Virus genome (UHGV): UHGV-0191547
Origin: a virus
DNA: 26,648 nt
Strand: one strand, 5' to 3'
Below the pieces are notes generated by a model. That model was not told the DNA's origin. It did no database searches and saw only the letters and a program-made list of their open reading frames with translations. Both the position numbers and the translations under genes were made by a program. Below are positions 3,030-25,140 of this stretch, piece after piece (position 1 is the stretch's first letter; every line of letters begins with the position of its first letter).

Positions 3030-3039
3030 TTAAGTTCGC

Positions 3040-3360: not shown

Positions 3361-3369
3361 GTTTCACCC

Positions 3370-4029: not shown

Positions 4030-4041
4030 AACCCACCACGC

Positions 4042-4131
4042 TTAGTTTTTATTTTTAAGTGATTTTAACATTTCTTCAATGAAATCCGCATAGCGTTCAT
4101 GTTCGTTGGGACGGTAGTTTACGTTTTTCAT
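4042..4131 (-). CDS. Possible micro-ORF (29 aa, MKNVNYRPNEHERYADFIEEMLKSLKNKN) leading cassette A
   Basis: Hand-translated from the - strand; GAGGA-type RBS upstream; not in the ORF track because it is under 60 aa. Confidence 0.2.
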   Translation of the reverse strand: MKNVNYRPNEHERYADFIEEMLKSLKNKN

Positions 4132-4208
4132 TTTCTTGTCCTCTTTTGCTTCCTCCGGTTTATCCGGTCCTTTTAAATCCCTTTACTCTATCCATTTCCT
4201 TTAGCCTC

Positions 4209-4237
4209 TTTATACAAAATGTATTCGTTGAAGTGAA
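4209..4237 (-). promoter_or_regulatory. Candidate sigma70 promoter for cassette A (TTCACT-N17-TATAAA) with upstream CAAAATGG element
   Basis: - strand reads CAAAATGGC-TTCACT-17 nt-TATAAA, nearly identical to the element at 7426-7454. Confidence 0.4.
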
Positions 4238-4289
4238 GCCATTTTGTATAAAATAGAGACATAGATCACATCTTGTATGAGGTTAAATC

Positions 4290-6629
4290 ATGGCTACCAG
4301 TGTAGGTACAATTTATTACGAAGTTGATGCAAAAACTGGTCAACTTCTCGTTGCACAACGACAGGCAGACCAGGCCTTTGACCGTATAGAGCGCGGCGCA
4401 AAACAGGCTGACCGCCAGGTAAACACCCTGAAAACATCCATCAAGGCACTGACCAGGGTTATCCATTTGCTAATTGCTGCCGAGGCTGTGCGCCAATTTA
4501 TGGATATGGCGGAGCAAGCCAAAATGCTTCGCGTAAAAATCAAATTGCTTACAGGTGAAGCGGAGGCAACGGAACGGGTTTTCAACAGACTGAAAGAAAT
4601 ATCAAAAGAAACAGGCCAAAGCCTCAAGGATACTGGTGCCCTGTGGCAAGGTCTTGCTATATCGCTAAAAAACACATCCGCCACAGAAGGCCAGGTGCTC
4701 AACCTGGTCAGCACGCTGCAAAAACTTGGTAACTTGGGCGGCGTGTCTGCGGAACAACTATCAAACTCCATGCTTCAGTTCCGCCAGGCTATTGATGCTG
4801 GCGTGTTGCAGGCGGAAGAGTTCAACTCAATACGTGATAACACCCCAACAATCATACAGGAAATGGCCCGACAGATGGGGTTATCTATGGGGCAGTTCCG
4901 CGCCGAAATGCTGGACGGCAAGATCACGGCTGAAAGGATGCTCAACGCGATCCAGGCGGCTACGCAGGAAACAAACGAGAAGTTTGCACAGTTACCGCGC
5001 ACGTCCGGTATGGCTTTTAATGAGCTTAAAGTCGAGGTGATGGGACTTGTCGAACAACTTGATGATCTTTTCGGCATATCAGATGGCGTTGTGTCAGCTA
5101 TCGACTTAATAACTGGTGGCGTTGAGGGATTAGGTAAAGGCGCAAAATTCGCCGCAACCTGTTTCAATACACTAAAAACGGCTGGCAGTGAGTTTATCGA
5201 CATGTTTGATGATGTTGCTGTTAAAGCTGGTGAGGTGGCGGAAGAGATTATCAGGATGGTAACGCCAATCAAAGCGCTAATGGATGGCTACAAATGGATG
5301 AAGGAGATCATTGATAAACGCAAGAATGAGCTAAACAGCAACAACGAAAAGAAATTCGGCCCTACAGTCGGTAAGGTCATGACGTTTGCAAATGACATCA
5401 AAAATGCGACCGCCGCTTATGATGAGTTTATGCAGAAACAGGGTGAGGCTGATGACGGCAAGATCACCGGATTCGATCAGCCAGTTGGCAAGCCGAAAAA
5501 AGGGAAAAAAGACAAGAAATCTGAAGCTGATCGGCTTGGTGATGAAGGCATAAAAGTATCCGACCAGTACAACAAAGACGCCGCAGCTATGCGCAAAGCG
5601 TTAGAGAACGGCAAGGCCATTGATGCTGCATTCGCCCAGGGTAAAATCACTCTCCTTGAGTACCGCGCCGCGCAAAAAGGGATAGGTAAGGAACTGAAGG
5701 AAGAATTAGCGCAAATTCCGGTAGATGAATTGCGTGATAAATGGGCGCAAATAGTAAGCCCGATGGATCAGCTTAAAGGTGAGGTTGACCCTATCCAGCA
5801 GGTGCAGAATGAATGGGCCGTCCGTAAGCAAATGCTTATCGACCTGGGCGTTACTGAAGCGCAACAGAAACAGGAACTGTTAGCCTATGAGCAACAGATC
5901 CGTGATCTGAAGTGGGAACAGTGGCAGGCACAAAGCGATACAAACGGCCTTATCGGTGATTGCGTTAATGGCCTAAAAGGTGGTATGAGCAATGCACTTG
6001 TTGGCCTGTTAAATGGTACTCAATCATTGAGTGATGTTTTTGCTAACTTAGGCAGCAATATCCTCGGGAATATCGGTAACAGGCTTTCAGACATAGCTGC
6101 AAACTGGATAGCAGATCAGATCATGATGGAAACGCAAAGCAAAGCGACTCAGGCAAGTACCACGGCGGGCGCGGTAGCGGCGCAAGGCCAGATTGCTGCG
6201 GCGGCGGCCCCGGCGGCGGCGGCAACAGCGGCGTCAACTGGCGGCGCATGGGCGGCGGCTGGTTCTGCGGCACTCACTGCGATCATGTCGCTGGCTACGT
6301 CAATTTTCGGCGGCGGTCGCTTTAATGGTGGTAGCGTTATTGGTGGCAATATGTACCGCGTAGGGGAACACAACAGGCCGGAGCTATTCCAGACATCTAA
6401 CGGAAATCAATATATGATCCCAGGCGAGAATGGCAGGGTTATTCCTGGGCGTGATATTGGCGGTGGCGGCGGCATTAGTATGCCTGTCAATATCAACATT
6501 CAGACCACAAACGGATTTAGCGACGAAGACAGTCGCAGACTTGAGCAAACAATGGAACGTGTAGCAATGAAGATGATAACAAGGGAATCACAAAGACCTG
6601 GAGGAATATTGCAACCGCGCCGCAAATAA
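4290..6629 (+). CDS. Tail tape measure protein
   Basis: 779 aa, alpha-helical N-terminal two thirds, Ala/Gly-rich low-complexity tract (AAAAPAAAATAAS), located between chaperone and gpM homologue. Confidence 0.9.
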   Translation: MATSVGTIYYEVDAKTGQLLVAQRQADQAFDRIERGAKQADRQVNTLKTSIKALTRVIHLLIAAEAVRQFMDMAEQAKMLRVKIKLLTGEAEATERVFNRLKEISKETGQSLKDTGALWQGLAISLKNTSATEGQVLNLVSTLQKLGNLGGVSAEQLSNSMLQFRQAIDAGVLQAEEFNSIRDNTPTIIQEMARQMGLSMGQFRAEMLDGKITAERMLNAIQAATQETNEKFAQLPRTSGMAFNELKVEVMGLVEQLDDLFGISDGVVSAIDLITGGVEGLGKGAKFAATCFNTLKTAGSEFIDMFDDVAVKAGEVAEEIIRMVTPIKALMDGYKWMKEIIDKRKNELNSNNEKKFGPTVGKVMTFANDIKNATAAYDEFMQKQGEADDGKITGFDQPVGKPKKGKKDKKSEADRLGDEGIKVSDQYNKDAAAMRKALENGKAIDAAFAQGKITLLEYRAAQKGIGKELKEELAQIPVDELRDKWAQIVSPMDQLKGEVDPIQQVQNEWAVRKQMLIDLGVTEAQQKQELLAYEQQIRDLKWEQWQAQSDTNGLIGDCVNGLKGGMSNALVGLLNGTQSLSDVFANLGSNILGNIGNRLSDIAANWIADQIMMETQSKATQASTTAGAVAAQGQIAAAAAPAAAATAASTGGAWAAAGSAALTAIMSLATSIFGGGRFNGGSVIGGNMYRVGEHNRPELFQTSNGNQYMIPGENGRVIPGRDIGGGGGISMPVNINIQTTNGFSDEDSRRLEQTMERVAMKMITRESQRPGGILQPRRK

Positions 6630-6635
6630 ACGAAA

Positions 6636-6663
6636 CCCCGGTACAATGCCGGGGTTATCTTTT
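6636..6663. terminator. Rho-independent terminator after the tape-measure gene
   Basis: CCCCGG-tacaatg-CCGGGG hairpin followed by TTATCTTTT. Confidence 0.6.
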
Positions 6664-6838
6664 AGTTATTCTCAAAACTTGTATATCCTCTTTCAATTTT
6701 CCCGCCTCTTACACTTCTTGCAAATACTGCATCATTATGTTTGAAAAATGGTTCAGTATATGTGTCTCCTTTACTATCCATCCATTTCACGATCCAGGCT
6801 ATACGTTTTACATTGCTTTTATTTGCCTGGTTTTTCAT
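6662..6838 (-). CDS. Possible small protein (58 aa), third gene of cassette B
   Basis: Hand-translated - strand ORF MKNQANKSNVKRIAWIVKWMDSKGDTYTEPFFKHNDAVFARSVRGGKIERGYTSFENN with RBS GGAGGAAAATAAA before the ATG. Confidence 0.3.
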   Translation of the reverse strand: MKNQANKSNVKRIAWIVKWMDSKGDTYTEPFFKHNDAVFARSVRGGKIERGYTSFENN

Positions 6839-6956
6839 TTTATTTTCCTCCGCAAATTACAATCTTCCGTTTCTGGCTATATAGCTGCGAGAAAACATCA
6901 CCAACCAAATATTCCAGATCTCCCTCCAGGTGAATTTATCGTCCTCCATACCCACC

Positions 6957-7211
6957 TCACTTATGGCAACCGCGAACGCCAGACAATTCATTGAATTTAT
7001 GGTGTTCAACAATCACCCACTCTTTCAGATCCTGGCTATAGACTCGCCAGTCTAAATTGGCGCGGAAGGCGTAGCCGTAACCGTCTTTCAATTTTTTGGG
7101 TGACGCATTCTTGTTTAAAAACGCGTTCAAAAGTTCCTTTGCTTTTTTGACTACATGTCCCGGCGCGTTTTTCTGTGCTTTCAGATTTTTGTCAATCGCT
7201 ACCAGTTTCAT
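6957..7211 (-). CDS. Small protein with RelE/ParE-like toxin signature (candidate mRNA interferase)
   Basis: 84 aa; C-terminal KKLKDGYGYAFRANLDWRVYSQDLKEWVIVEHHKF resembles the RelE/ParE core pattern kLkG..g.yelRvgdyRviY....ilrigHRk recalled from memory. Confidence 0.4.
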   Translation of the reverse strand: MKLVAIDKNLKAQKNAPGHVVKKAKELLNAFLNKNASPKKLKDGYGYAFRANLDWRVYSQDLKEWVIVEHHKFNELSGVRGCHK

Positions 7212-7228
7212 AACTCACCCCATCATCC

Positions 7229-7384
7229 TTAGTTAAGTGCCTTCAGGAAGAAGTCCCGGTATTCATCTTCTTTTGCATTCATCATGAATTGACCGTATTT
7301 GAATGCGTCGTCGAAACCCTTAACGATTGCTATTTCCACTTGTTCGAATGCGTTGTTTAGCATTACCACTACATAGCGTTTCAT
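7229..7384 (-). CDS. Small protein (51 aa) upstream of the RelE/ParE-like gene; possible antitoxin partner
   Basis: Internal start MKRYVVVM chosen over the ORF-track start at 7459 because it has a strong RBS (GAAGGAGG, 6 nt spacing); the 7459 ATG lies inside the conserved promoter element. Confidence 0.4.
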   Translation of the reverse strand: MKRYVVVMLNNAFEQVEIAIVKGFDDAFKYGQFMMNAKEDEYRDFFLKALN

Positions 7385-7425
7385 TTTGGGCCTCCTTCGT
7401 TGGTACTGCTTTTCTTCTTGCTTTC

Positions 7426-7454
7426 TATATACATCTTGATGCGTGATATGTGAA
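7426..7454 (-). promoter_or_regulatory. Candidate sigma70 promoter for cassette B (TTCACA-N17-TATATA) with upstream CAAAATGG element
   Basis: - strand reads CAAAATGGC-TTCACA-17 nt-TATATA; 17 of 18 nt identical to the cassette A element at 4233-4250. Confidence 0.4.
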
Positions 7455-7553
7455 GCCATTTTGTAAACTAGCTATAATCATTGTGATGAAGATCTCATTT
7501 TTTGCGTAGAATCGCGTAAAAGTATATACAAAATGTAAATTATAGGGGGATTT

Positions 7554-7907
7554 ATGCCTGAAGTGTTCCGATGGACACCACAAAGAAGCTACAGCGTAAA
7601 CAGTGAGCCTAACGTGTCTGTCATTAAGCTGGGTGATGGGTATGAACAGCGCCAGACAAAAGGGATTAACCCTTTACTTGATAGCTACAGCCTGGTTTTT
7701 AAAGGCACAAGCGCCGGATGCGGTGACGCCGGAAACGTGGCGCTCCAAGTTGACGCATTTTTAAGGGCGCGTTGCGCGGTCGAGGCGTTTTACTGGACTC
7801 CATCAACTGACGGGGTGCAAAGGCTTTTTGTATGCAGAAAGTGGAGCATGACGAAAGACGGCCCGGTATGCACGCTAAACGCAACTTTTGAGCAAGTTGT
7901 CAATTAA
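7554..7907 (+). CDS. M: Minor tail protein M
   Basis: 117 aa; FRWTP...GDGYEQR and C-terminal ATFEQVVN match the lambda gpM pattern (recalled ...FSAEFEQVVN). Confidence 0.85.
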   Translation: MPEVFRWTPQRSYSVNSEPNVSVIKLGDGYEQRQTKGINPLLDSYSLVFKGTSAGCGDAGNVALQVDAFLRARCAVEAFYWTPSTDGVQRLFVCRKWSMTKDGPVCTLNATFEQVVN

Positions 7908-7920
7908 TGGAGGTGTCAAT

Positions 7921-8106
7921 ATGTATGCTATTTGTGTAGTGGACCGCACGGGCGCTTTTACATTGTTTGACGACTATGAAATCAACGATCTTACTGTAAA
8001 GGCTGATAATGGCGAGATCTGGTATCTTCATGATGTTGGTGACGGGTATGTCGGATGCAGATCGAGAGAGGGTAGGGAAGTTTTATTTTTACTTGATGGC
8101 GTATAA
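7921..8106 (+). CDS. Small hypothetical protein (61 aa) inserted between M and L in sense orientation
   Basis: Start MYAICVV with RBS GGAGGTG; followed directly by a strong hairpin terminator; lambda has no gene here. Confidence 0.4.
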   Translation: MYAICVVDRTGAFTLFDDYEINDLTVKADNGEIWYLHDVGDGYVGCRSREGREVLFLLDGV

Positions 8107-8111
8107 ACACG

Positions 8112-8140
8112 ACCCCGCGCGAAGCGGGGTTATTATTATT
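8112..8140. terminator. Rho-independent terminator (CCCCGC-gcgaa-GCGGGG then TTATTATTATT)
   Basis: Hairpin plus T-rich tail; 8112-8134 is the exact reverse complement of 16307-16329. Confidence 0.6.
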
Positions 8141-8252
8141 CCATTTCCATTAACGCTATATTTTCTGCTATCGTTTTCCAGTCCAGATCTACAGCATGAA
8201 CACCAAATACTATCAATCCCATTGCGATTAGTGCTAAAACTTCGATTTTCAT
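8136..8252 (-). CDS. Possible small hydrophobic peptide (38 aa), last gene of cassette C
   Basis: Hand-translated MKIEVLALIAMGLIVFGVHAVDLDWKTIAENIALMEME with GTGAGG RBS; one predicted hydrophobic helix. Confidence 0.25.
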   Translation of the reverse strand: MKIEVLALIAMGLIVFGVHAVDLDWKTIAENIALMEME

Positions 8253-8343
8253 AATCAACCTCACTTAATTAAGAAAGGCATAAACGATGGCAATCGCGCC
8301 AGCCACTACCAAAACATTTCGATCACTTCGTCTACTTTATTGA

Positions 8344-8547
8344 TTAAGGTAACTCCACTTCGTTAAATGTAACAAGCACCCCTTGATTTTCTTTATTTAT
8401 AATTATGAAGGCATTAATTGAAGGCAGACATCTTTCCACGCGGTAAACGTCACCAATATCTAAACTGTAATATTCTGTTAATTCTCTATTGTTCCCTTTA
8501 GCAAAACCCGTAAACCTAACCATTTTTTGACCGTCGTACTTTAACAT
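8344..8547 (-). CDS. Hypothetical protein (67 aa), cassette C
   Basis: - strand ORF with AGGA RBS, tightly packed with neighbours; AT-rich. Confidence 0.45.
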   Translation of the reverse strand: MLKYDGQKMVRFTGFAKGNNRELTEYYSLDIGDVYRVERCLPSINAFIIINKENQGVLVTFNEVELP

Positions 8548-8555
8548 ATACAGTC

Positions 8556-8804
8556 CTATAGGTTATCACGCAGATAATTAACGCCTTTGTCAGTGACGAA
8601 TGAGTGATTAACCTGGTTTTCATCCGTCATGATGATGAATGACTTTTCCTGTAGGTATTTCGCTTTTGGGTACAGCGTTAAACAGACCTGGTACAGTATC
8701 CCGCGCTCAATCAGCAAATCAATAAATTCGTGCTCATGATAACCGACGAGGCGGGCGGCTTGTTTCAACGTGTACACATAATCGCCGTGATTGCGCCGCC
8801 CCAT
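8556..8804 (-). CDS. Hypothetical protein (82 aa), cassette C; possible helix-turn-helix
   Basis: Segment YTLKQAARLVGYHEHEFIDLLIERGIL has a helix-turn-helix-like pattern; no family recognised. Confidence 0.45.
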   Translation of the reverse strand: MGRRNHGDYVYTLKQAARLVGYHEHEFIDLLIERGILYQVCLTLYPKAKYLQEKSFIIMTDENQVNHSFVTDKGVNYLRDNL

Positions 8805-8813
8805 GTTGCCGCC

Positions 8814-9161
8814 TTATTTATCGAATGCGCCCAGGTTATCTATGCAGAAGTCTTTCGCAGCTTTTTCGTATTCGCGTTTTGCTTGCGGATCGTCTGCCGG
8901 GAAACCTTTTGCGTGTATTTCACCAGGGCAAGACTGATCCATAGAATCAGCAAATTCAACATTGACGTTAAAGTTAATATCTTTCGGATTCATGTTTTCC
9001 ACCTCATCAATTATCTGCACCGGATTAGCGGCATATTTCACTGGATGGCCTAAACTACATTCAAGAATCCTTCCTTCTTCCAAAGCTGCCTCTTCGCTAT
9101 CAAATAATCCGAAACACTCCTTGCAACCACTTAACCACACATCAAGACTATATTTTTGCAT
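8814..9161 (-). CDS. Hypothetical Cys-containing acidic protein (115 aa), cassette C
   Basis: - strand ORF with GAGAGG RBS; CKEC...C...SCPGEIH cysteines suggest possible metal binding. Confidence 0.5.
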   Translation of the reverse strand: MQKYSLDVWLSGCKECFGLFDSEEAALEEGRILECSLGHPVKYAANPVQIIDEVENMNPKDINFNVNVEFADSMDQSCPGEIHAKGFPADDPQAKREYEKAAKDFCIDNLGAFDK

Positions 9162-9173
9162 TTCGTTAACCTC

Positions 9174-9329
9174 TCATTTGACAGGTTCGATTCTGTACCC
9201 CAAAACGCGTTCGTCTTCAGCGAGTAATAGCGCGTCAGTCAGTGCCTCGCCTTCGTCTTTATACAGAGCTACAGTCATTTCCCTGCCACCTGACAGGAAT
9301 ACCTTCAACCTCCACACCTTATCAGCCAT
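9174..9329 (-). CDS. Hypothetical small protein (51 aa from MADKVWRL), first gene of cassette C
   Basis: Internal start preferred (RBS GGAGGTG, 6 nt spacing); the ORF-track start at 9404 overlaps the predicted -35. Confidence 0.4.
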   Translation of the reverse strand: MADKVWRLKVFLSGGREMTVALYKDEGEALTDALLLAEDERVLGYRIEPVK

Positions 9330-9375
9330 CTCACACCTCCGCGCCATTTTGTTAACTGTGCTTCCGTTTGAGTAA

Positions 9376-9404
9376 AATATACATATTGTATAAACCGCGA
9401 TCAA
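9376..9404 (-). promoter_or_regulatory. Candidate sigma70 promoter for cassette C (TTGATC-N17-TATATT) with upstream CCAAAATGG element
   Basis: - strand reads CCAAAATGGA-TTGATC-17 nt-TATATT; same architecture as the cassette A and B elements. Confidence 0.35.
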
Positions 9405-9458
9405 TCCATTTTGGTATGATTTAGCGTGACGCAGATCACAAAATCAGAAGGTGAGAAA

Positions 9459-10163
9459 ATGCGCAATATACCTACAGAGATGATTATTGATTCCGTGGAC
9501 GCTGGTGTGGGCGCGGTGATTGACTTGTTCGAACTGGACTTGTCGCCCCTGGGTGGCGAGGTTATCCGCTTCCATTCCGGCGCGAATGGCTATTACGGCC
9601 CGGTTATCTGGAAGGGATTAACTTACAACAGCTACCCGATCGAGGCTACTGGCTTCGAAATGAAAAACGAGGGCGTTTATTCGCGGCCTCAAATGGTTGT
9701 AGCCAATATCGGCGGGCTAATCACAGGGATGAATAACGACTTCAACGACCTGCGAGGAATGAAGGTTACGCGCCGCCAGGTGGAAGTAAAATACCTGGAC
9801 GCCGTTAACTTCCCAAACGGCAATCCAGACGCAGATCCATCTATTGAGGCTGTATCTTTTTACGTCGTGGAGGCCATGAGCGAGGAAACAGCGGATCAGG
9901 TGCAATATGAGCTGTCAACGCCAATTGATGCTGATAAGGCCGTTATCCCTGGGCGCACCATCCTTGCTGACGTTTGCCAGTGGCAATACAGAGGCGACGG
10001 GTGTATGTACGCTGGCGGACCAGTAGCAAACGATAAAGACGAGCCGACAAGCGATCCTAAAGCCGACAGATGCAGCCACCGTCTAAGCGGTTGTCGTTTG
10101 CGTTTCCCGCGTCCAAATCCGTTACCGATTTCCTGTTTCCCTGGTTCCAGTAAGGTAGGTTAA
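9459..10163 (+). CDS. L: Minor tail protein L
   Basis: Start at MRNIPTEM (RBS AGGTGAG); VTRRQVEVKYLDAVNF and PGRTILADVCQWQYRGDGC match recalled lambda gpL blocks. Confidence 0.85.
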   Translation: MRNIPTEMIIDSVDAGVGAVIDLFELDLSPLGGEVIRFHSGANGYYGPVIWKGLTYNSYPIEATGFEMKNEGVYSRPQMVVANIGGLITGMNNDFNDLRGMKVTRRQVEVKYLDAVNFPNGNPDADPSIEAVSFYVVEAMSEETADQVQYELSTPIDADKAVIPGRTILADVCQWQYRGDGCMYAGGPVANDKDEPTSDPKADRCSHRLSGCRLRFPRPNPLPISCFPGSSKVG

Positions 10164-10165
10164 TC

Positions 10166-10897
10166 ATGGTAATGGAAGACAAAATGTTGCGTTATGCCGC
10201 CGCGCATCCGTTTGAAGAAGTTTGCGGACTGGTAATAGATAACGAATATTTTTACCCGTGCGCTAACGTGTCTGAAACGCCCTACAACAGCTTCAAAATT
10301 TCGCCGGACGATTACATCAAAGCTGACGAATTGGGCGTTATAACCGCCGTTTTTCACTCTCACGTTGATGATATTCCGGTATTGTCGGCACGGGATCGAC
10401 AACAGCAGGTTATTTCAGGACTACCCTGGCTTTTGTATTCAGGCGGAAGGATCAGGAAATTCCGTCCGGTAGCGCACCTGTTAGGCAGAAAATTTGAACA
10501 CGGGAAAACAGACTGCTACGCGCTTTTCCGCGACGCCTATCACCTTTGCGGCGTGGATCTGCCTGACTTCGAGCGCCTTGATGGGTGGTGGTTGCGTGGT
10601 GAAAACCTGTATTTAAAAAACTTGCCTCTAAACGGGTTTTTCCAGGTTGACGCTAAAAGCATACAGCCTGGAGATGTAATTATCCGGCAGCCGTTTAAAG
10701 GCGCGGACCCATGCCACGCGATGATTTACCTGGGCGATAACACTGTTTTGCATCATGACAATGCCGGACTGCTAAGCCGCCGCGAGCAAATGCGGCCCGC
10801 TTATGTTCGACAAACGCATTCAATATGGAGATCTGATAAATGCTCAAATTTAGATTTACGGGCAATCTTCGAAGATATTACAGCAAAGTGTGTTTAA
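10166..10897 (+). CDS. K: Tail tip assembly protein K (NlpC/P60 plus JAB/MPN-like domains)
   Basis: FHSHVDD (JAMM-like) and GKTDCYALFRDAYHL (NlpC/P60 Cys) motifs; collinear with lambda gpK in my recalled alignment. Confidence 0.85.
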   Translation: MVMEDKMLRYAAAHPFEEVCGLVIDNEYFYPCANVSETPYNSFKISPDDYIKADELGVITAVFHSHVDDIPVLSARDRQQQVISGLPWLLYSGGRIRKFRPVAHLLGRKFEHGKTDCYALFRDAYHLCGVDLPDFERLDGWWLRGENLYLKNLPLNGFFQVDAKSIQPGDVIIRQPFKGADPCHAMIYLGDNTVLHHDNAGLLSRREQMRPAYVRQTHSIWRSDKCSNLDLRAIFEDITAKCV

Positions 10898-11370
10898 ACG
10901 TTGAAACGCCAGCGCAAGGACTTCGCTTGTTGACCGCGCAGAATCAGGAATTCAAGAAGGCGTTTTTAAATACACCTTTGCGTTTACGAATTTCCGGGAA
11001 AGATTACGACGAAAAGACCGCGCCCGCTGCGGTTAATAGCAAATATCCAGATGGGACTACGGTAATTATTGCGCCAATAGTGGAAGGTGGTATTGCAGGG
11101 ATCGGTGTGGTCGGTTGGATTATGATCGGAATATCAGTTGTTAGTGTCGCATTTTCTATTTTCATGTCTCGCAACATGAAGGTGAAAACATCATCAGAAA
11201 GCGCACAGGATAACACCATAACAAACAACAGTTACACCAGCATAGAAAACAGGGTGGGCCAGGGTAGACCAGTGCCAATTTTATTGGGTGAAATGAAAGT
11301 AGGTTCAAACGTCGGATCGTTAGGCATAGACACAACAAACAATAAAGACGCCTTAGACGTTGTAAGTTAA
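10840..11370 (+). CDS. I: Tail assembly protein I
   Basis: GEMKVGSNVGS matches recalled lambda gpI GEMRVGSRVVS; Gly-rich hydrophobic central segment; overlaps the K 3' end in another frame. Confidence 0.8.
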   Translation: MLKFRFTGNLRRYYSKVCLNVETPAQGLRLLTAQNQEFKKAFLNTPLRLRISGKDYDEKTAPAAVNSKYPDGTTVIIAPIVEGGIAGIGVVGWIMIGISVVSVAFSIFMSRNMKVKTSSESAQDNTITNNSYTSIENRVGQGRPVPILLGEMKVGSNVGSLGIDTTNNKDALDVVS

Positions 11371-11384
11371 CAGGAGAAATAACC

Positions 11385-14300
11385 ATGAGTAGCGGCGGCG
11401 GCAAAGCAAAAACACCAACTTTAATTAACGATAATCTATATCACAAACAGTTTTATCGTGTACTCGACATTATTTCAGAAGGTCCGATTTATGGTCCTGT
11501 TAATACCAATGCGCCATTAAACAGCGTAATGCTTAATGACACCCCTGTAACTGACGCGAACGGCAATACCAGCATCCCCGGTATTAGCGTAGCGTGGCGC
11601 AATGGTACGATAGATCAATCACCGATTAACGGTTTTAACGCCATTGAATCAACCGTTATTGTTAACGCACAGGTTAAACACGATACACCAATAATCAGGA
11701 CCGTTTCCGATCCTAACGTAAACCGCGTTCGCCTGAATATCGGCGTCGATTCACTTGTACAATCTGACGAGCAAAGCAATCAACATAACACATCGGTTAT
11801 GATGATGATTGACGTGAAGCCTTCGTCTTCTTCTACGTGGACGCTTGTTAAAGACGTTACTATAGGCCCAGGTAAGATCAGCGGAGAATATCTTGAAGCG
11901 CATATTATCAATGCACCAGATGAAAAACCGTTTGATATTCGCGTTCGCCGTGTAACCGCTGATAGCACAAGCGATCTGTTGCAGAATGATACGCGATGGA
12001 GTAGCTACAGCGAAATAATCGACGATAATTTGTCTTATCCTCACACCGCTGTAGCTGGCGCGGTAATTGACCATGATCAGTACGCTGACACGCCTACCCG
12101 CACCTATCACCTTCGCGGGCTGATTGTTGATATTCCTGATAACTACGACCCGGAAAAGCGCACTTATTCCGGTTTGTGGCTTGGCGGCTTCAAACAGGCG
12201 TACACCAATAACCCAGCATGGATCTTCCGCTATCTGGTTAAAAACGAGCGTTTCGGCCTTGCTCGTCACGCTGGCTATATTGACGTTGACGACGGCGCAT
12301 TATATACGCTTTCTCAATACTGCGACCAGTTGGTTGATGATGGCTACGGCGGCCTTGAGCCTCGCATGACGCTTAACGCTTACATCACAGAGCAAATGAG
12401 CGCCCGCGACTTACTGGACAATATCGCCGGGATGTTCAGGGGTATCGCGTTATGGGACGGGCAACGCCTTACCGTGATGATTGATGCACCACAAGACCCG
12501 ATCGCCACCATTACAAATGCAAATGTCGTTGATGGCGCGTTTACTCGTTCAAGTATCGCCCGCGCAGAATGCTACAACGCCGTGATCGTATCATGGACTG
12601 ACCCGGAAAACGGATGGGAGCAATCAAAAGAGTATGTAGCAGACGATGAACTGATCGCCCGTGATGGTTACAACGAAACCACGTTAGAGGCGTTCGGGTG
12701 CACATCACGCGGGCAAGCATACCGCGCGGGCAAGTGGCTGATAGAAACAGCAAAACGCGAGCCGTCAAAATTCACGTTTAAAATGGCGCGTGACGCGATT
12801 CACTTTACGCCAGGGGATATTATCGAGATACTCGACAATAACCGCGCAGGCGCTCGTTTAGGCGGCCGCATCGTTGCGAACAACGGCAAAGTAATAACGG
12901 TAGATAAGGTTGACGCCAATTATATCGCCGCTGGGGATACAATCAGCCTTCTTGATAGCGATGGCAAGTTTAAAAAGCATCAGATCACCGGGGTGAGCGG
13001 AAACAAAATCACACTGGCGGCGGCCCCGTCATGGATTCGAAACGGCACTGTTTTTGCTGTATCCACTGAATCAGCAAAACCCGTTTTGTGCCGGATCACC
13101 AGTGTAGCCGAAACAGAAAATAACAGCGTGTACACCATCGAGGCCGCACAGCACGACCCGAACAAGCAAGCAGTGGTCGATGAAGGCGCAATATTTGAAG
13201 TCAACAATGACACGCTTAACCATTTCCGCGTGCCGAACATTGAAAATCTGAAGGTGGTAAACATTGGATCGGAAACAATTCAATGTCGCGCCACATGGGA
13301 AACGCAGACAACAACGCATCGTATGACATTTGAGATCCGCATATATAATGCAGATGGTGCGGTGGTTAAAAGCTATGAAACAACGAAATACAGTTATGAT
13401 TTTTATGGCATTGACGCTGGCGTGTATTCTTTAGGGGTTCGCGGAAGAAATGACACTGGCATGAAGGGCGCGGAAAGTATTGTGGATCTGGTTATTGGTG
13501 CGCCAGCAGCGCCAATAGGTGTTAACTGGGTACCAGGTGTATTTCAGGCTACCGTATACCCGATAAGTAAGACAACGCTAACCACTGATACAGCGTATGA
13601 ATTCTACTATGCAGGGGAAAACCAGATCACAGATCCGGCAAAAATAACCACGGCGGCACAGTTTACCGGGCGCGGGTATCAGTGGACGTTCGGCGGAATG
13701 AACACGGGCCATACTTATTACGTTTATGTGCGTACACGTAATGCTTTTGGCGTGTCAGACTTCGTTGAAGCATCAGGTAAGCCGACAGAAAATTTTGATG
13801 AAATTAGCGATTACGTCACCAAAGACGTGATGAATTCCGAACAATTTAAAGAAATGGTGGGCGACATTAAGGATCTTGGCGATCGCACTGACATTATCGA
13901 AAGTGCAACTCAAGACCTTAAAACAGCTACTGATACCCTAAGCGGAATAACTGAAGGCTTAAGAACTGATACTGATAATTTAATTACAGAAACAGAATCA
14001 ATTAAAGCTGATACTGATTCCCTTAAAAAAGACACTGAAGACCTTTACAAGAAAGTCGAAGAAAACGCCGATGAAATAGGTAAACATGAGGTAAGAATTG
14101 ACTCATTAGAGGTATCAAGCGAAAACGTAGATAATGAACTGGCACAGACAAAAGCAAGCCTACAAAACGCATCGCTTGCTCTTATTAATAATTCGCTTGC
14201 TCAAACTAATACCAGAAGAACGCTGACAGCTCAGATCAAAAACGTGGATTATGAAACTAAGGCGCAAATAGATCGCATTGATAACGTGATTGTCAGTGAA

Positions 14301-16304
14301 AAAGAAGCAAGAGCGGAGGCAATGGAGACAATTACCGCCGAAATCGACACGATGGATAAAAACATCAAAGGTGAGATTGCGCGCGTAGATACTGCCATTG
14401 CCAATGAGAGCCAGGCAAGGGCTGATGCCATCAGTGAAGTTAGCGCAAACATTGACGCACTTGATAGTAAAACAGATGCCAGTGTTAATCGTCTTGATCA
14501 AGCTATCGCAGATGAGGCCAGCGCACGCGCACAGGCTATCAGCAATGTCAATGCGAGCATGACAAATCTTGATAACAAGGTTACAAGCAACGTTTCTAGA
14601 CTTGATCAGGCAATAGCTGACGAATCAAGCGCAAGAGCAGAAGCCGATGATCAGTTAATAGCAAAAAGCGAAAAACTTGATGGTGATCTCGCTATGGCAA
14701 GGGCAAGCCTACAAAACGCTTCGCTTGCTCTCATCAATAATACATTGTCTCAGACAAAGACAAGGCGCACTCTCACAGCGGAGTTCAAACGCGGACAAAG
14801 TGAAACTAAAGCACAAATTGACCGTATTGATAATGTCATTACTGACGAAAAACAGGCAACAGCGGAAGCGTTTGAAACTATCACAGCAGAAATGAACACG
14901 ATGGACTCAAACATTAAAGGAGAAATATCACGATTAGATAAAGTGATCGCGACTGAAACGCAAGCAAGATCTGAAGCTATAAGTAGTGTTAATGCAAGCA
15001 TAAAGACGCTAGAAAGCGACACTGAAGCCAGCGTTAACCGTCTTGATCAGGCAGTTGCTGACGAGGCCAGCGCCCGCGCACAAGCTATCAGCGGAGTAAA
15101 TGCAAGCATCAGCACGCTTGATAGCAAGGTTACAAGCAATGTGACCCGTATCGACAAAGCTATTGCAGATGAGACGCAGGCCCGCACAGACGCAATAAGC
15201 AACCTTAACTCATCGCTTACCAGTACGATTAATTCTAAAGTATCTGAAGTATCAACAGCACTTTCTACGCATGAAGCATCAAGCGCGGAAAAATTCAGCC
15301 AGATCTCAGCGTCTTTCGAAGCTGTAAACTCAAGCATCACGGAATGGTCGCAGACCATGACAACGGCGGACGAGGCATTATCAACCAAAATTGATCAGTT
15401 AACAGTAACCGTTAATGGGAACACAACAGCGATCGAGACGACATCGAAAGCGTTAACCGACTTCAAAGGTAATGTTGATGCGTCATGGTCAATCAAGATT
15501 GCTACTGATAACAACGGCATGAAATACGCTACAGGTATGTCGCTTGGCCTGACTGGTAGCGGGACTAACGTTCAATCGCAGTGTATTTTCCTCGTTGACC
15601 GCTTCGTGTTAATGACCGCAGCAAACGGCACATATACAACGCCTTTCTATGTGTCTAATGGTGCAATGTATGTGAAAGAAGCGTTTATTAAAAACGCATC
15701 AATAGGTACAGCTAAAATTGCAGATGCAGCCATTACTATGGCTAAAATTGTTAATGAAATAAAATCATCAAACTATGTTGCTGGTTCTAAAGGTTGGAGG
15801 ATAACACAAAGCGGATCATCAGAATTTAACGATGTTGTGGTAAGGGGCGAAATCCATGCTAATAGCGGTAAATTCAAAGGAACTGTAGAAGCTACATCCT
15901 TTGTTGGTGATGTCGCATCTACTAACGTTATACCGCAATCATCATTCCCTGGGACAAGTACAAGCGGATCTCGATCTGTTACGAAGACGTATAAAGATTC
16001 ATCATCAAGCTCGCTTTCGAAAACAGTTTTCGTAATGATTCCTTACCATCTTACTTATTATACTTATTCAGGATCATCAACAATAAAAGTAACAATTGAT
16101 ATTAATGGCAATAGCAAAACATATAACGTAGTAAGGGCGGCATCATCGCCTCAATTCGGATTTACGGTATCACATTGCGTAACTGGGATTACTGCTCAAA
16201 CAGTTACGATAAAAATAACAGAGGAATACACCAACACCGGAACATCAGCAGAAAGAAGGCCAGGTCTTGCACTTGTTACAAGAAGCTCAGGATCATGGTC
16301 ATAA
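11385..16304 (+). CDS. J: Central tail fibre / host specificity protein J with an expanded coiled-coil repeat region
   Basis: 1639 aa; N-terminal ISEGPIYGP, FGCTSRGQAYRAGKWL and the C-terminal KYATGMSLG...FLVDRF block match recalled lambda gpJ; about 500 aa of heptad-like repeats inserted between them. Confidence 0.9.
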   Translation: MSSGGGKAKTPTLINDNLYHKQFYRVLDIISEGPIYGPVNTNAPLNSVMLNDTPVTDANGNTSIPGISVAWRNGTIDQSPINGFNAIESTVIVNAQVKHDTPIIRTVSDPNVNRVRLNIGVDSLVQSDEQSNQHNTSVMMMIDVKPSSSSTWTLVKDVTIGPGKISGEYLEAHIINAPDEKPFDIRVRRVTADSTSDLLQNDTRWSSYSEIIDDNLSYPHTAVAGAVIDHDQYADTPTRTYHLRGLIVDIPDNYDPEKRTYSGLWLGGFKQAYTNNPAWIFRYLVKNERFGLARHAGYIDVDDGALYTLSQYCDQLVDDGYGGLEPRMTLNAYITEQMSARDLLDNIAGMFRGIALWDGQRLTVMIDAPQDPIATITNANVVDGAFTRSSIARAECYNAVIVSWTDPENGWEQSKEYVADDELIARDGYNETTLEAFGCTSRGQAYRAGKWLIETAKREPSKFTFKMARDAIHFTPGDIIEILDNNRAGARLGGRIVANNGKVITVDKVDANYIAAGDTISLLDSDGKFKKHQITGVSGNKITLAAAPSWIRNGTVFAVSTESAKPVLCRITSVAETENNSVYTIEAAQHDPNKQAVVDEGAIFEVNNDTLNHFRVPNIENLKVVNIGSETIQCRATWETQTTTHRMTFEIRIYNADGAVVKSYETTKYSYDFYGIDAGVYSLGVRGRNDTGMKGAESIVDLVIGAPAAPIGVNWVPGVFQATVYPISKTTLTTDTAYEFYYAGENQITDPAKITTAAQFTGRGYQWTFGGMNTGHTYYVYVRTRNAFGVSDFVEASGKPTENFDEISDYVTKDVMNSEQFKEMVGDIKDLGDRTDIIESATQDLKTATDTLSGITEGLRTDTDNLITETESIKADTDSLKKDTEDLYKKVEENADEIGKHEVRIDSLEVSSENVDNELAQTKASLQNASLALINNSLAQTNTRRTLTAQIKNVDYETKAQIDRIDNVIVSEKEARAEAMETITAEIDTMDKNIKGEIARVDTAIANESQARADAISEVSANIDALDSKTDASVNRLDQAIADEASARAQAISNVNASMTNLDNKVTSNVSRLDQAIADESSARAEADDQLIAKSEKLDGDLAMARASLQNASLALINNTLSQTKTRRTLTAEFKRGQSETKAQIDRIDNVITDEKQATAEAFETITAEMNTMDSNIKGEISRLDKVIATETQARSEAISSVNASIKTLESDTEASVNRLDQAVADEASARAQAISGVNASISTLDSKVTSNVTRIDKAIADETQARTDAISNLNSSLTSTINSKVSEVSTALSTHEASSAEKFSQISASFEAVNSSITEWSQTMTTADEALSTKIDQLTVTVNGNTTAIETTSKALTDFKGNVDASWSIKIATDNNGMKYATGMSLGLTGSGTNVQSQCIFLVDRFVLMTAANGTYTTPFYVSNGAMYVKEAFIKNASIGTAKIADAAITMAKIVNEIKSSNYVAGSKGWRITQSGSSEFNDVVVRGEIHANSGKFKGTVEATSFVGDVASTNVIPQSSFPGTSTSGSRSVTKTYKDSSSSSLSKTVFVMIPYHLTYYTYSGSSTIKVTIDINGNSKTYNVVRAASSPQFGFTVSHCVTGITAQTVTIKITEEYTNTGTSAERRPGLALVTRSSGSWS
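14154..15200 (+). repeat. Intragenic tandem duplication in J (two diverged units of about 550 bp, roughly 183 aa each)
   Basis: Both units open with GCAAGCCTACAAAACGC (14154 and 14704) and contain nested VNRLDQA(I/V)ADE(A/S)SARA sub-repeats. Confidence 0.8.
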
Positions 16305-16306
16305 AA

Positions 16307-16335
16307 AATAACCCCGCTTCGCGCGGGGTTTTCTT
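16307..16335. terminator. Rho-independent terminator after J (CCCCGC-ttcgc-GCGGGG then TTTTCTTTT)
   Basis: Hairpin plus T-run; reverse complement of the 8112-8134 element. Confidence 0.6.
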
Positions 16336-16584
16336 TTAGTAGTTAGCTACACAATTCGACGGGCTACCTATGCGGCGCATGTTGTGATCGAGTTCATGAC
16401 ACCATTGACCAGTATATGGCAGTTTTTCAGTGTCATATACAAGATGACCATTAGCATCATAGACGATTTCTTGTGGAATCACTCCGCTATTTGGCAGGTT
16501 ATGCAATGCAGCTTCTTTGTCAACAGCGCAACCAGTAAGAGCAACAGCCGCAGCGAATAAAACCACTTTGAACATGTTTTTCAT
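16336..16584 (-). CDS. Small lipoprotein (82 aa), antisense cassette D between J and the tail fibre
   Basis: MKNMFKVVLFAAAVALTGC signal peptide with lipobox A-L-T-G-C; single gene between two terminators. Confidence 0.6.
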   Translation of the reverse strand: MKNMFKVVLFAAAVALTGCAVDKEAALHNLPNSGVIPQEIVYDANGHLVYDTEKLPYTGQWCHELDHNMRRIGSPSNCVANY

Positions 16585-16761
16585 TTTTTAATCCTCGTTC
16601 TTGTTAGCTCATCCGGTTCATCCGGTGGCTTAAATATCCGACAAAACCACATTTCGTATATTGATATAAATCAATAAATACATTTTGTATAAGTCAAAAA
16701 TGTAACATAGATCACAAAATGGTAGAATTATTCCGTTAATTAACATAATGGAGTCATTGCG

Positions 16762-18552
16762 ATGATTTATACAACGGGAACAATTGCCATTAACGGCAAT
16801 ACTGTTACAGGCACGGGAACAAACTTTTCCGCGCCGCTTTCTCTCATCCGTGTAGGTTGCACGCTCATTGCCATTAGCAATCCTATCCAGATCTTTACCA
16901 TCACAGAAATTAAGAGCGGTACTGAACTGTCAGTGACGCCAGCGGCTAACCCTGCAATTGCTGCCGGGGCAAAATTCAGCATTCTGCTTTCTGACTCTAT
17001 CTCAGTTGATGGGCTTGCCCAGGATGTAGCGGAAACACTTCGTTTTTATCAGGAAAAAGAAGACGAAATATCCAGCGCAATAGATGGCAGCAATATTGGC
17101 TTAGGTCCAGAGCCGCGCGATTGCGTCGATATATCAGGCGATCCGTCTTCTTACGTTGGCTTTTTGCGCATAAAGGAAACGACTAAGGGTTTTCCTTCTG
17201 TAGCGGCTGGTGAATCATTTTTGAGTGGATTTATCTGTCAACGAGACACGACGCCTTCATATACAGGCGTCTTTGTCGGTTGGGCTACGCGATCACTTTA
17301 TACGTATACATGGGTCGCAACATCAGGTCCGAACTGGACACGACACGCAAGAAAAGATGAGGTGGATAGGCTTGTTCAAAGAACAGGAGAAACTCGCGTA
17401 CGCGCTCAAAACGCAAATAAATTCCTTACCGTCTATGATTCAGGATCGTGGGGTTATTATGACTCAGAGGCTAGTAAATGGCTACCGCTTCCAGTTCTTG
17501 CTGGAGGCACTGGTGCGGGAAACGCAGAAGAAGCAAGAAATAATTTAAATCTTGGTGAAAGCAACGCGGTTAAATTCAAAAACCTTACGTTAATAGGGGC
17601 GCTAGATGCAAATTTAGGCATGCTCGTAAAAACTGGAAGAGACTGGAATACTCAGCACACTGACAATATCCAAAAATTTATACCAATGGCAGGAAGCACA
17701 AACGGACCCGCCGGAGCAATGGTACTCGGTGGCTTCCATGTGCAATACAGCACAAATTACGCTGTGCAATTCGGGGGTCGAAATTCCGGTTTTTGGGGTA
17801 GAACAATTGAAAACGGAACAGTTCAGGAATGGCGTCAACTAGCTACGCTTAACACATCCGGTCAAAAATGGACTGCCGGTCAGCATTTTGTGACGACAAA
17901 AATTAACTCTTATGATTTCACAAGACGTTTAACTATCGATGTGATAGAAAACGCAAAAACAAACGCACGGTTACGCTTATGGGGATCAGAAACAAGGCAG
18001 TCCGTTTTAGAATATGGACTCTCGAACGCTGAAACCGATGAGTATAATACATATGGCTTTTATTGCCAGCTTAACCCAGACGGAGTAATTAGTTTTCAGG
18101 TTAACGGCGTAGTAAACTGCACAGCAGTTAATCAGACTTCAGATCGCGATCTGAAGGACAACATTCAGGTTATAGGTGATGCAACTGAAGCAATCCGTAA
18201 AATGAACGGGTACACCTACACCCTCAAGGAAAACGGCCTGCCTTACGCTGGCGTTATCGCTCAAGAGGTAATGGAGGCGCTGCCGGAGGCTGTGGGATCG
18301 TTTACTCATTACGGTAAAGCATTACAAGGCCCGACCACTGACGGCAACGAGCTACGCGAGGAAACGCGTTACCTCAATGTTGACTACGCTGCGGTGACTG
18401 GTTTACTTGTTCAGGTGGCACGCGAAACAGATAACCGCGTCACCGAACTGGAGGAAGAAAACGCCAGCTTACGAGCTAACATTGCCGTCATGGATGAGCG
18501 GATCACAAAACTTGAAGCGCTTGTCAGGCAGTTAACCGGAAGCGAAGAATAA
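16762..18552 (+). CDS. Tail fibre/tailspike protein with C-terminal intramolecular chaperone (peptidase S74-like) domain
   Basis: 596 aa; C-terminal TSDRDLKDNIQVIGDATEAIRKMNGYTY...YAGVIAQEV followed by a coiled coil is the S74 autoproteolytic chaperone signature. Confidence 0.75.
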   Translation: MIYTTGTIAINGNTVTGTGTNFSAPLSLIRVGCTLIAISNPIQIFTITEIKSGTELSVTPAANPAIAAGAKFSILLSDSISVDGLAQDVAETLRFYQEKEDEISSAIDGSNIGLGPEPRDCVDISGDPSSYVGFLRIKETTKGFPSVAAGESFLSGFICQRDTTPSYTGVFVGWATRSLYTYTWVATSGPNWTRHARKDEVDRLVQRTGETRVRAQNANKFLTVYDSGSWGYYDSEASKWLPLPVLAGGTGAGNAEEARNNLNLGESNAVKFKNLTLIGALDANLGMLVKTGRDWNTQHTDNIQKFIPMAGSTNGPAGAMVLGGFHVQYSTNYAVQFGGRNSGFWGRTIENGTVQEWRQLATLNTSGQKWTAGQHFVTTKINSYDFTRRLTIDVIENAKTNARLRLWGSETRQSVLEYGLSNAETDEYNTYGFYCQLNPDGVISFQVNGVVNCTAVNQTSDRDLKDNIQVIGDATEAIRKMNGYTYTLKENGLPYAGVIAQEVMEALPEAVGSFTHYGKALQGPTTDGNELREETRYLNVDYAAVTGLLVQVARETDNRVTELEEENASLRANIAVMDERITKLEALVRQLTGSEE

Positions 18553-25101: not shown

Positions 25102-25140
25102 AATGTTATTTCCTCCGGTTTACATATTGTATATTCATTG

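Follow-up and report, generated by a model that had tools for sequence, protein, structure and literature searches.

Divergent promoter-like regions with CRP- and FNR-type palindromes beside backward-facing accessory cassettes in the tail module of an mEp021-like coliphage

The late operons of phages can be interrupted by accessory units known as morons or noncontiguous operons, such as lom and bor of lambda, gp15 of HK97 and taiEcA of phi80. The taiEcA genes have the opposite orientation and interrupt the Q-dependent late operon (PMC11364771). A comparable arrangement is found in the stretch of DNA analyzed here, UHGV virus genome UHGV-0191547 (26,648 nucleotides (nt), 26.6 kb, referred to as the window), in which four minus-strand blocks (cassettes C1-C4) break up the plus-strand tail genes. 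The subject of this work is the set of repeated sequences in the four divergent intergenic regions (IG1-IG4), which amount to 633 nt together:

4132 to 4289: IG1, divergent region between cassette 1 and the tape measure gene
7385 to 7553: IG2, divergent region between cassette 2 and the minor tail gene
9330 to 9458: IG3, divergent region between cassette 3 and tail gene L
16585 to 16761: IG4, divergent region between cassette 4 and the tail fibre gene

The cassettes resemble morons in having a terminator and a (here predicted) promoter of their own between conserved late genes, in their orientation against the late operon, in a content that varies among relatives and in the presence of one superinfection-exclusion lipoprotein. 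With the noncontiguous tai operon of phi80 they have in common the position of antisense accessory genes within a Q-dependent late operon. They differ from morons in that four units occupy fixed positions in every family member, that the promoter regions belong to the backbone rather than to the cargo and are related to one another and to the early promoter, and that the promoter-proximal genes of two units are core. In moron terms, terminators and promoter candidates are present and C1 and C4 are variable; the proximal genes of C2 and C3 and all four promoter regions are conserved backbone.

Among regulatory elements, the proximal subsite of UP elements has the consensus AAAAAARNR at -46 to -38, the ansB promoter of E. 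coli, which is co-dependent on FNR and CRP, has FNR at -41.5 and CRP near -91.5, and the C1 repressor operators of phage P1 are scattered around the genome. Warman et al. described bidirectional CRP-regulated promoters, at which, with CRP at -60.5, one RNA of a two-way promoter is activated and the divergent one blocked via polymerase competition; AT-rich sequence near -18 was found to stimulate promoters (PMC12825309).

The repeated sequences of IG1-IG4 are confirmed as real and above chance. We read them, with moderate confidence, as a small family of two-way sigma-70 promoter regions with CRP/FNR-type palindromes that would drive the four backward-facing accessory blocks. Most likely these regions are part of the backbone of mEp021-like phages and an ordinary kind of element, one not described before for this phage group. 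The initial annotation had offered as its first interpretation that the cassettes share one promoter architecture and possibly one regulator, and in this it was largely right. The window corresponds to the tail module of a coliphage of the mEp021-like (mEpimmI) group, and its gene order recurs in all annotated relatives. A new family of common gut coliphages was proposed for the mEpimmI phages in their 2025 description; keyword searches of that paper found none of the words moron, divergent, intergenic, opposite and CRP, and "promoter" a single time, in connection with a cloning vector (PMC11893012). A literature search with the motif strings returned nothing relevant. Relatives were found by megablast with bases 3000-17000, which matched seven mEp021-group coliphages (MagusPhagus at 93%; mEp010, mEp021 and others at ~85%); 35 E. 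coli prophages also match the window.

Repeated sequences shared by the four intergenic regions

Exact copies of the motif CATTTTGTA occur six times in the 26.6 kb, five of them within the 633 nt of IG1-IG4; dinucleotide shuffles gave a mean of 0.014 copies in these regions and none of 3000 reached five. For CATTTTGT, seven copies stand in IG1-IG4 against 0.06 expected from shuffles, and AGATCACA has four copies in the window against 0.84 expected. A k-mer census found both CATTTTGT and CCATTTTG in all four regions. A gap-free alignment of IG1, IG2 and IG3 spans 51 bp. In the motif register, 19 of its columns are identical in all three; at the best offset there are 22, and shuffles reach 14.5 on average and 18 at most.

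All strings quoted by the initial annotation were recovered, most of them where it had placed them. The match between GTGAAGCCATTTTGTATA (4233-4250) and GTGAAGCCATTTTGTAAA (7450-7467) is identical at 17 of 18 positions, above every shuffle (maximum 15). CCATTTTGG is present at 9406-9414, as are the 11-nt inverted pair at 4211-4221 and 4240-4250 and the pair formed by CCATTTTGT at 7456-7464 and TATACAAAATG at 7525-7535. Two positions needed correction: copies of AGATCACA do stand at 4263-4270 and 16709-16716, but the copy in the third region is at 9433-9440 and not at 9431-9438; the reverse complement of the 16-mer at 4210-4225 exists, but at 16677-16692 rather than 16678-16694.

Predicted promoters and the oriented motif

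When three of the intergenic regions are read in the cassette direction and aligned on the -10 hexamer, they share a leftward template, made up of ACAAAATGG, one base, TTSAYN, 17 nt ending in TG, and TATAWW. The spacers of the three candidates (P1L-P3L) end in ATG or TTTTG. In this alignment CAAAATGG lies directly 5' of the -35-like hexamer in all three, exactly as the initial annotation had stated. Its wider proposal of a shared promoter architecture is supported in silico by these three candidates, by conservation of the template in ~40 relatives and by the early promoter considered below, but not by the leftward strand of IG4, which is off the template. The hexamer matrix ranks candidates on both strands of every intergenic region among the best 1e-5 to 5e-4 of placements window-wide. 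With the predicted start set 7 nt below the -10 (+/- 2 nt), the candidates are as follows:

4209 to 4237, minus strand: predicted P1L, ACAAAATGGC then TTCACT, 17 nt, TATAAA; -35 at 4237-4232, -10 at 4214-4209, predicted start ~4202; score 7.0, top 4e-4 of all placements
7426 to 7454, minus strand: predicted P2L, ACAAAATGGC then TTCACA, 17 nt, TATATA; -35 at 7454-7449, -10 at 7431-7426, predicted start ~7419; score ~7
9376 to 9404, minus strand: predicted P3L, CCAAAATGGA then TTGATC, 17 nt, TATATT; -35 at 9404-9399, -10 at 9381-9376, predicted start ~9369; score 11.1, second in the window
4228 to 4254, plus strand: predicted P1R, -35 TTGAAG, 15-nt spacer, -10 TAAAAT at 4249-4254, predicted start ~4261; score 9.5
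7473 to 7478, plus strand: -10 of predicted P2R, a perfect TATAAT hexamer with -35 GTGAAG 17 nt upstream; score 9.3
9349 to 9378, plus strand: predicted IG3 rightward promoter, -35 TTGTTA (inside CCATTTTGTTAAC), 18-nt spacer, -10 TAAAAT; score 10.7
16720 to 16728, plus strand: predicted P4R, extended -10 TGGTAGAAT for the fibre gene; score 8.6

The sigma-70 definition (a -10 hexamer with A at -11 and T at -7, a -35 hexamer and a spacer of 17 +/- 1 bp) fits P3L and the rightward candidates with TAAAAT, TATAAT, TGGTATGAT and TGGTAGAAT. The rightward -10 of IG3 (9373-9378, plus strand) overlaps that of P3L (9381-9376, minus strand), with predicted starts 16 bp apart. Among the relatives, the P2R hexamer TATAAT is invariant in 42 of 43 unique sequences, a strong -10 at the position of P4R is kept in all, those without a leftward cassette included, and such variation as occurs is tolerated in kind (TAAAAT to TAGAAT in IG1 of two relatives, TAAAAT to TACAAT in IG3).

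The bidirectional promoters of Warman et al. are likewise pseudo-symmetrical and AT-rich, with -10-like hexamers on both strands and a CRP-type site near -60.5 (PMC12825309). IG3, with its overlapping -10 hexamers, falls within their shared -10 sequence definition, in which starts lie 10, 18 or 23 bp apart. IG1 and IG2 fall outside it, as predicted back-to-back overlapping promoters with their -10 hexamers ~35-42 bp and predicted starts ~59-66 bp apart.

The repeated unit is an oriented 11-12-mer, TATACAAAATGG, the reverse complement of which reads CCATTTTG followed by TATA (CATTTTG, then TATA). Forwards it occupies ~-48 to -37 and touches the -35 hexamer of the three leftward promoters; backwards it forms the T-rich end of the spacer (~-18) and the first bases of a -10-like hexamer. 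In IG1-IG3 there are two motif positions 29 bp apart, a spacing that predicts overlapping back-to-back promoters. The two copies of IG1 are a clean inverted (convergent) pair, each standing 5' of the -35 of one promoter and supplying the spacer end and -10 of the opposite one. The left-hand copies of IG2 and IG3 are degenerate, with about as good a match to the motif in one orientation as in the other; that of IG3 lies within the palindrome TATACATATTGTATA, so its orientation is ambiguous. The copies are:

4211 to 4222, plus strand: TATACAAAATGT; its minus strand (CATTTTG, then TATA) gives the spacer end and the start of the P1L -10
4239 to 4250, minus strand: TATACAAAATGG, abutting the P1L -35; its plus strand CCATTTTGTATA runs into the P1R -10
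7456 to 7467, minus strand: TTTACAAAATGG, abutting the P2L -35
7525 to 7536, plus strand: extra copy TATACAAAATGT, 18 nt before the ATG of the minor tail gene
9406 to 9420: CCATTTTGG with an extended -10; the minus strand CCAAAATGG abuts the P3L -35, and the plus strand continues into the extended -10 TGGTATGAT
16677 to 16692, minus strand: TTATACAAAATGTATT, identical to 4210-4225 and inverted relative to the backbone

The motif has some likeness to the UP element proximal subsite, in that TACAAAATG at -46 to -38 matches seven of nine positions and an A-tract lies at -43 to -40. It differs in being far more sequence-specific and more conserved and in being used in reverse beside -10 hexamers. 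A comparison by eye with the consensus sequences of IHF, Fis, LexA, TyrR, ArcA and OmpR found none that fitted convincingly. A coding role was considered and set aside: CAAAATGG contains an ATG, which in IG1 would open MASLQRIHFV followed by a stop, in IG3 would give M-D-stop and in IG2 would extend a frame, but these reading frames lack a ribosome-binding site, so the motif is not coding. The 13-bp palindrome ATACA-N3-TGTAT, found once in each intergenic region (10/10 in IG1, IG3 and IG4, 9/10 in IG2), was also rejected as the unit, since its right arm is not kept in the IG1 relatives, which leaves the 11-12-mer. A fifth copy of this palindrome (9/10, TTTACATATTGTATATT) is present at 25120-25132, in a short gap 5' of a 372-amino-acid (aa) open reading frame (ORF; 23983-25101, minus strand) beside a replication gene.

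The initial annotation saw the sequence family at every cassette boundary. The motif is not common across the window, nor is it exclusive to the boundaries: in the complete genome of mEp021, 10 of 11 copies of CATTTTGTA are intergenic, the early promoter region included. The mEp021 early promoter, 5' of nutR1/gp17, reads ACAAAATGGA, TTGACT, 17 nt, TATATT, with a copy of CATTTTGTA within GTATACAAAATGGA, and the 19-mer of this promoter is exact in 39 viral contigs of the family. This recurrence in the template arrangement points to a phage-wide promoter-associated element that is not peculiar to cassette boundaries. In distant relatives (L051-L097; ~71% L-protein identity, other genera included) the M-L junction is different and contains no motif, and these loci added no depth to the footprinting.

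CRP-type and FNR-type palindromes and the proposed mechanism

The sequence AGATCACA is the right half of a CRP-type palindrome that is present in all four intergenic regions. With the core TGTGA-N6-TCACA (22-bp site) scored across the whole window, there are only three 9/10 matches in 26.6 kb, which are TGTGATGAAGATCTCA in IG2, CGTGACGCAGATCACA in IG3 and TGTAACATAGATCACA in IG4; IG1 has an 8/10 match, AGAGACATAGATCACA. In simulations with the composition of the intergenic regions, 0.018 such 9/10 cores are expected and none of 2000 reached three. A perfect FNR-type box, the sole 10/10 match in the window, stands in IG4 beside the CRP-type site:

4252 to 4273: CRP-type 22-mer of IG1, AATAGAGACATAGATCACATCT, core 8/10, centre 4262.5; invariant right half (ATCACA), variable left half and spacer
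7479 to 7500: CRP-type 22-mer of IG2, CATTGTGATGAAGATCTCATTT, core 9/10, centre 7489.5
9422 to 9443: CRP-type 22-mer of IG3, TAGCGTGACGCAGATCACAAAA, core 9/10, centre 9432.5
16698 to 16719: CRP-type 22-mer of IG4, AAATGTAACATAGATCACAAAA, core 9/10, centre 16708.5
16661 to 16674: FNR-type box of IG4, TTGATATAAATCAA, perfect TTGAT-N4-ATCAA, centre 16667.5

The CRP-type centres lie at -60.5 from the predicted start of P1L, -70.5 from that of P2L, -63.5 from that of P3L and -82.5 from that of IG4, and at +1.5, +4.5, +5.5 and -26.5 from the predicted starts of P1R, P2R, P3R (with the extended -10 TGGTATGAT of IG3) and P4R. Positions known for activation by CRP include -41.5, -61.5, -71.5 and -82.5. 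The conserved half-sites have a single allele across 33-43 unique relatives, as compared with two to five alleles for the spacer. In IG3 (37 unique relatives), GTGA and GATCACA have one allele each and central spacer positions two or three; the spacers between GTGA and TCAC are CGCAGA, CGTAGA, TGGCGA, TTTAGA and CACAGA. Fixed half-sites around a free spacer are the pattern of a protein-contacted dyad and not of an RNA hairpin. A Dam site was rejected as the basis of this conservation: the GATC within AGATCACA is lost in many relatives and TCACA is kept, so Dam methylation is unlikely to be the point. Sequences, statistics, shared geometry and the conservation pattern are in this sense direct observations.

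The FNR-type box is centred at -41.5 from the start predicted from a -10-like GATATT (16638-16633). It is kept as TTGAY-N4-ATCAA in relatives with the leftward cassette, and relatives with a different cassette 4 have a GATACT hexamer at the same distance from it. Three relatives without a leftward gene between J and the fibre gene (L022, L036 and L042) retain the motif directly behind the J terminator as well as a strong -10 before the fibre gene, lack the FNR-type box and have a degenerate CRP region that differs among the three. This pattern ties both palindromes to the leftward unit, and the retained -10 suggests that the fibre gene may have its own promoter. A perfect 10-bp palindrome in the fibre gene leader, GTTAATTAAC (16735-16744), is found in essentially all relatives, whether their upstream cassette is the same, different or absent.

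Two early-region intergenic sites of mEp021 (L003), at 16519-16570 and 20078-20156, carry a 9/10 CRP-type palindrome together with motif copies. The second lies just 5' of a boxA-like sequence, GCTCTTTAAAAA (taken as nutR2 from the published description of its position), and contains a plausible promoter (TTGTTC, 16 nt, TATACT).

From this geometry we infer promoter activity, start sites, a UP-like role of the motif, and CRP/FNR binding and its sign. Each intergenic region would be an overlapping divergent sigma-70 promoter pair, one member driving the minus-strand cassette and the other facing the next tail genes. The A-tract of the motif at -43 to -40 may act like a proximal UP subsite, as a contact for the alpha subunit of RNA polymerase, and the T-tract at ~-18 like a stimulatory AT-rich spacer element. 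P1L and P2L look weak and activator-dependent, judging by the absence of the T at -7; cyclic AMP (cAMP)-CRP could activate such weak leftward promoters from class I-type positions, and FNR at -41.5 could help leftward transcription of the exclusion-lipoprotein cassette. CRP binding and polymerase competition would at the same time damp the rightward internal promoters. Given that the palindromes stand at activator-type distances from the predicted leftward starts and on or just downstream of the predicted rightward cores, cAMP-CRP and FNR would favour leftward transcription in the lysogen. During lytic growth, late tail transcription would come mainly from the Q-modified upstream late transcript.

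Known CRP class I and FNR+CRP promoters agree with this arrangement in several respects. TGTGA-N6-TCACA lies at ~-61, -71 and -82 and TTGAT-N4-ATCAA at -41.5 in IG4, and an A-tract is found between the CRP site and the -35, where the C-terminal domain of the alpha subunit would dock. The locus differs from them in that its positions are counted from predicted starts, one site is ~2 bp out of phase and two palindromes have one good half. A single regulator for IG1-IG4 is plausible from the sequences, with CRP as the sharper candidate.

Several points weigh against reading the regions as promoters under CRP/FNR control. The scoring matrix consists of approximate textbook frequencies. P1L and P2L, with their 17-bp spacing, are without the highly conserved T at -7 and lie below the threshold of a simple scan. 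IG4 has the motif but no good leftward promoter of the shared template, its leftward candidate relying on the weak -10-like GATATT. Some relatives have lost the A at -11 of TATGAT, the extended rightward -10 of IG3. The palindromes of IG1 and IG4 each have a weak left half of low conservation, with the right half alone fixed there, and the IG3 centre at -63.5 is ~2 bp off the usual CRP class I phase. The near-invariance of 4239-4257 also goes beyond what a degenerate UP-like element would show and could mean a specific protein site: in 37 unique relatives it is almost unchanged, with the first C replaced by A in five (GACATTTTG) and TATAGAAT in two.

If the promoter model holds, it would account for how the prophage expresses the exclusion lipoprotein and the remaining accessory blocks, cAMP-CRP and, via FNR, oxygen would be predicted to exert control, and the locus would offer a compact natural set of overlapping divergent promoters for the study of polymerase-competition rules. 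Its value is that of annotation and testable predictions, not of a new principle.

Alternative explanations and cassette exchange

Chance resemblance of AT-rich intergenic sequences, which are rich in -10-like hexamers, has a negligible probability and is ruled out by the shuffle tests and by conservation in ~40 relatives. It is very improbable that the elements act in RNA, either as 5' leader signals of plus-strand tail transcripts with AGAUCACA near the 5' end or as nut-like sites. For this it can be said that the predicted rightward transcripts of IG1-IG3 would have AGATCACA at +3 to +14 and that IG2, between its CRP-type site and its last motif copy, has a small conserved GC hairpin with a purine-rich loop (7504-7515; GCG-TAGAAT-CGC in the window, CGCG-TAGAAG-CGCG in most relatives). 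The window nonetheless has no Rfam match, and the palindromes have invariant stem halves, no compensatory change and a freely varying would-be loop, quite unlike the boxB of this family, which keeps an A-rich loop. A boxB/nut reading of the palindromes was rejected on the same pattern of fixed arms and variable loop, on the absence of any boxA-like sequence beside them and on the location of the family's nut sites elsewhere. We regard it as unlikely, though far less so, that the motif, the GTGA-N6-TCAC palindromes or both are dispersed operators of a phage-encoded DNA-binding protein that silences or switches internal promoters, for which the immunity repressor Rep021, the Cro-like gp14 and a cassette-encoded KilAC or antitoxin protein would be candidates. 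All members belong to one immunity group with a 96% identical repressor, motif and palindromes occur together at six or more intergenic sites of mEp021, the immunity region and the nutR2-adjacent site included, 4239-4257 is conserved more tightly than a generic promoter element calls for, and each of the predicted rightward tail promoters has a palindrome over its core, as expected of a lysogenic silencer. The operators of P1 C1 are similar in that a short conserved motif stands at many promoters of a single-immunity-group phage; here, by contrast, the motif tolerates drift at several sites (CCATTTCG, CCATATTG and CCGTTTTG in IG2 and IG3 relatives) and the palindromes resemble host CRP sites. 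Their closeness to the CRP consensus and the conservation of one half in IG1 and IG4 would be unusual for a dedicated dimeric phage repressor, ATACA-N3-TGTAT is not kept in the IG1 relatives (right arm to TGGAG), and phages of one immunity differ from each other in the spacer of the early promoter. When the mEp021 immunity region was searched for repeats that could be Rep021 operators, only motif-like direct repeats and no clear operator set were found. It is similarly a long shot that IG1-IG4 are directional switches in the Q-dependent late operon, at which a bound protein would set leftward cassettes against rightward tail genes; either host CRP and FNR, as sensors of gut-like conditions, or the single immunity repressor at dispersed operators in the manner of P1 C1 could play this part. 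Host physiology or immunity would in that case govern accessory expression in the lysogen, and perhaps that of the tail fibre too, at many sites at once.

The initial annotation had alternatively proposed that the sequences mark recombination joints. This is supported only in part: in the coverage of the window by 49 relatives, the homology of cassettes 1 and 4 does break at the motif-block edge. IG1 is conserved from ~4200 rightwards in 44 of 49 relatives, and coverage of C1 falls from ~43 to 5-29 between 3025 and ~4195, so that the break at the left edge of the motif block (~4195-4200) is essentially at the predicted P1L start; coverage of C4 falls from ~40 to 16 between ~16300 and 16650, with the break at ~16650. 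In C2 and C3 variation is limited to the distal parts (6650-7000 and 8250-8550). The sequences could be mainly conserved flanks for cassette swaps by homologous recombination, with promoter activity secondary, which we think improbable. In C1 and C4 homology does break exactly at the terminator and at the motif-block edge, in relatives without cassette 4 the J terminator is directly followed by TTTATACA, where the backbone starts again, and the terminators that close the cassettes on the other side belong to one sequence family. Set against this, the motif stands at a single end of each cassette, the promoter-proximal genes of C2 and C3 are core and only distal parts vary, early-region promoters have the motif with no cassette, recombinase-type site structure is absent, and the footprint-like conservation of the palindromes indicates protein binding and not mere shared ancestry. 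As the motifs are on the backbone side, at one end and present without cassettes, they are not recombination sites in their own right. It would fit these data that promoters and terminators serve as conserved flanks for cassette exchange, a role compatible with the promoter function that we favour. Integron attC-like or att-like sites were likewise rejected, with the motif at one cassette end, a terminator at the other and promoter candidates carried by the cassettes themselves.

The genes and terminators around the intergenic regions are:

4290 to 6629, plus strand: tape measure gene, ATG 4290
7554 to 7907, plus strand: minor tail gene M, ATG 7554
9459 to 10163, plus strand: tail gene L, ATG 9459, followed by K and I
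11385 to 16304, plus strand: J
16762 to 18552, plus strand: tail fibre gene, ATG 16762
4131 to 3040, minus strand: cassette C1, with a 29-aa ORF (first ATG 4131), a VasI-domain lipoprotein and a 106-aa ORF
7384 to 6662, minus strand: cassette C2, with a 51-aa ORF (ATG 7384), a ParE-like toxin and a 58-aa ORF
9329 to 8136, minus strand: cassette C3, with a 51-aa ORF (ATG 9329), a 115-aa ORF, a KilAC-like protein and two small ORFs
16584 to 16336, minus strand: cassette C4, a lipoprotein (ATG 16584) of a type shown to exclude superinfecting phages
3006 to 3022: two-way terminator at the distal end of C1
6634 to 6656: two-way terminator at the distal end of C2
8111 to 8131: two-way terminator at the distal end of C3
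16310 to 16330: two-way terminator at the distal end of C4

Lipoproteins of the type encoded by C4 have been shown to exclude superinfecting phages (PMC11893012), and expression from the prophage is therefore to be expected for this cassette. The C1 lipoprotein (219 aa, 3370-4029) contains the type VI secretion VasI domain PF11319 (E = 2e-14), which is unexpected in a phage accessory gene. The lipoprotein is the second gene of cassette 1 and the sole gene of cassette 4, and the 5' leaders of both cassettes contain a hairpin CCGGAT(A/G)AACCGG preceded by GGAT(A)TTTAA (4152-4168 and 16613-16625); this coincidence suggests a common leader module. Cassettes 2 and 3, each of which starts with a 51-aa gene, were considered as duplicates and rejected because the proteins are unrelated, so a recent duplication of promoter and gene does not explain the common upstream sequence. 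At the start of C2 (6957-7384), the 51-aa gene and the following gene for a protein with a ParE-like toxin domain (PF24732) are core to the family and may form a toxin-antitoxin pair.

The distal terminators belong to one sequence family, GACCCCGCGCGAAGCGGGGTT being the reverse complement of AACCCCGCTTCGCGCGGGGTT at 20 of 21 positions (8111-8131 and 16310-16330), and a third (6634-6656) has AACCCCG...CGGGGTT in common with these two.

The only integrase of the window (18817-20064) has its own repeat set at 18610-18862. It comprises an exact 22-nt direct repeat, TGTGTACCAAATAGTGACCAAA, at 18610-18631 and 18841-18862 (231 bp apart), and repeats of the TCTATCGTG type (18727-18818) between the fibre terminator and the integrase gene; by their sequence these look like an attP core or arm-type sites. 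The order fibre-att-integrase indicates that the phage genome is continuous here. Further downstream, at 25490-26049, a 173-nt repeat occurs three times at distances of 186 and 201 nt within a 305-aa replication-protein ORF (25141-26058, minus strand); the copies have 75-83% identity and are like origin iterons.

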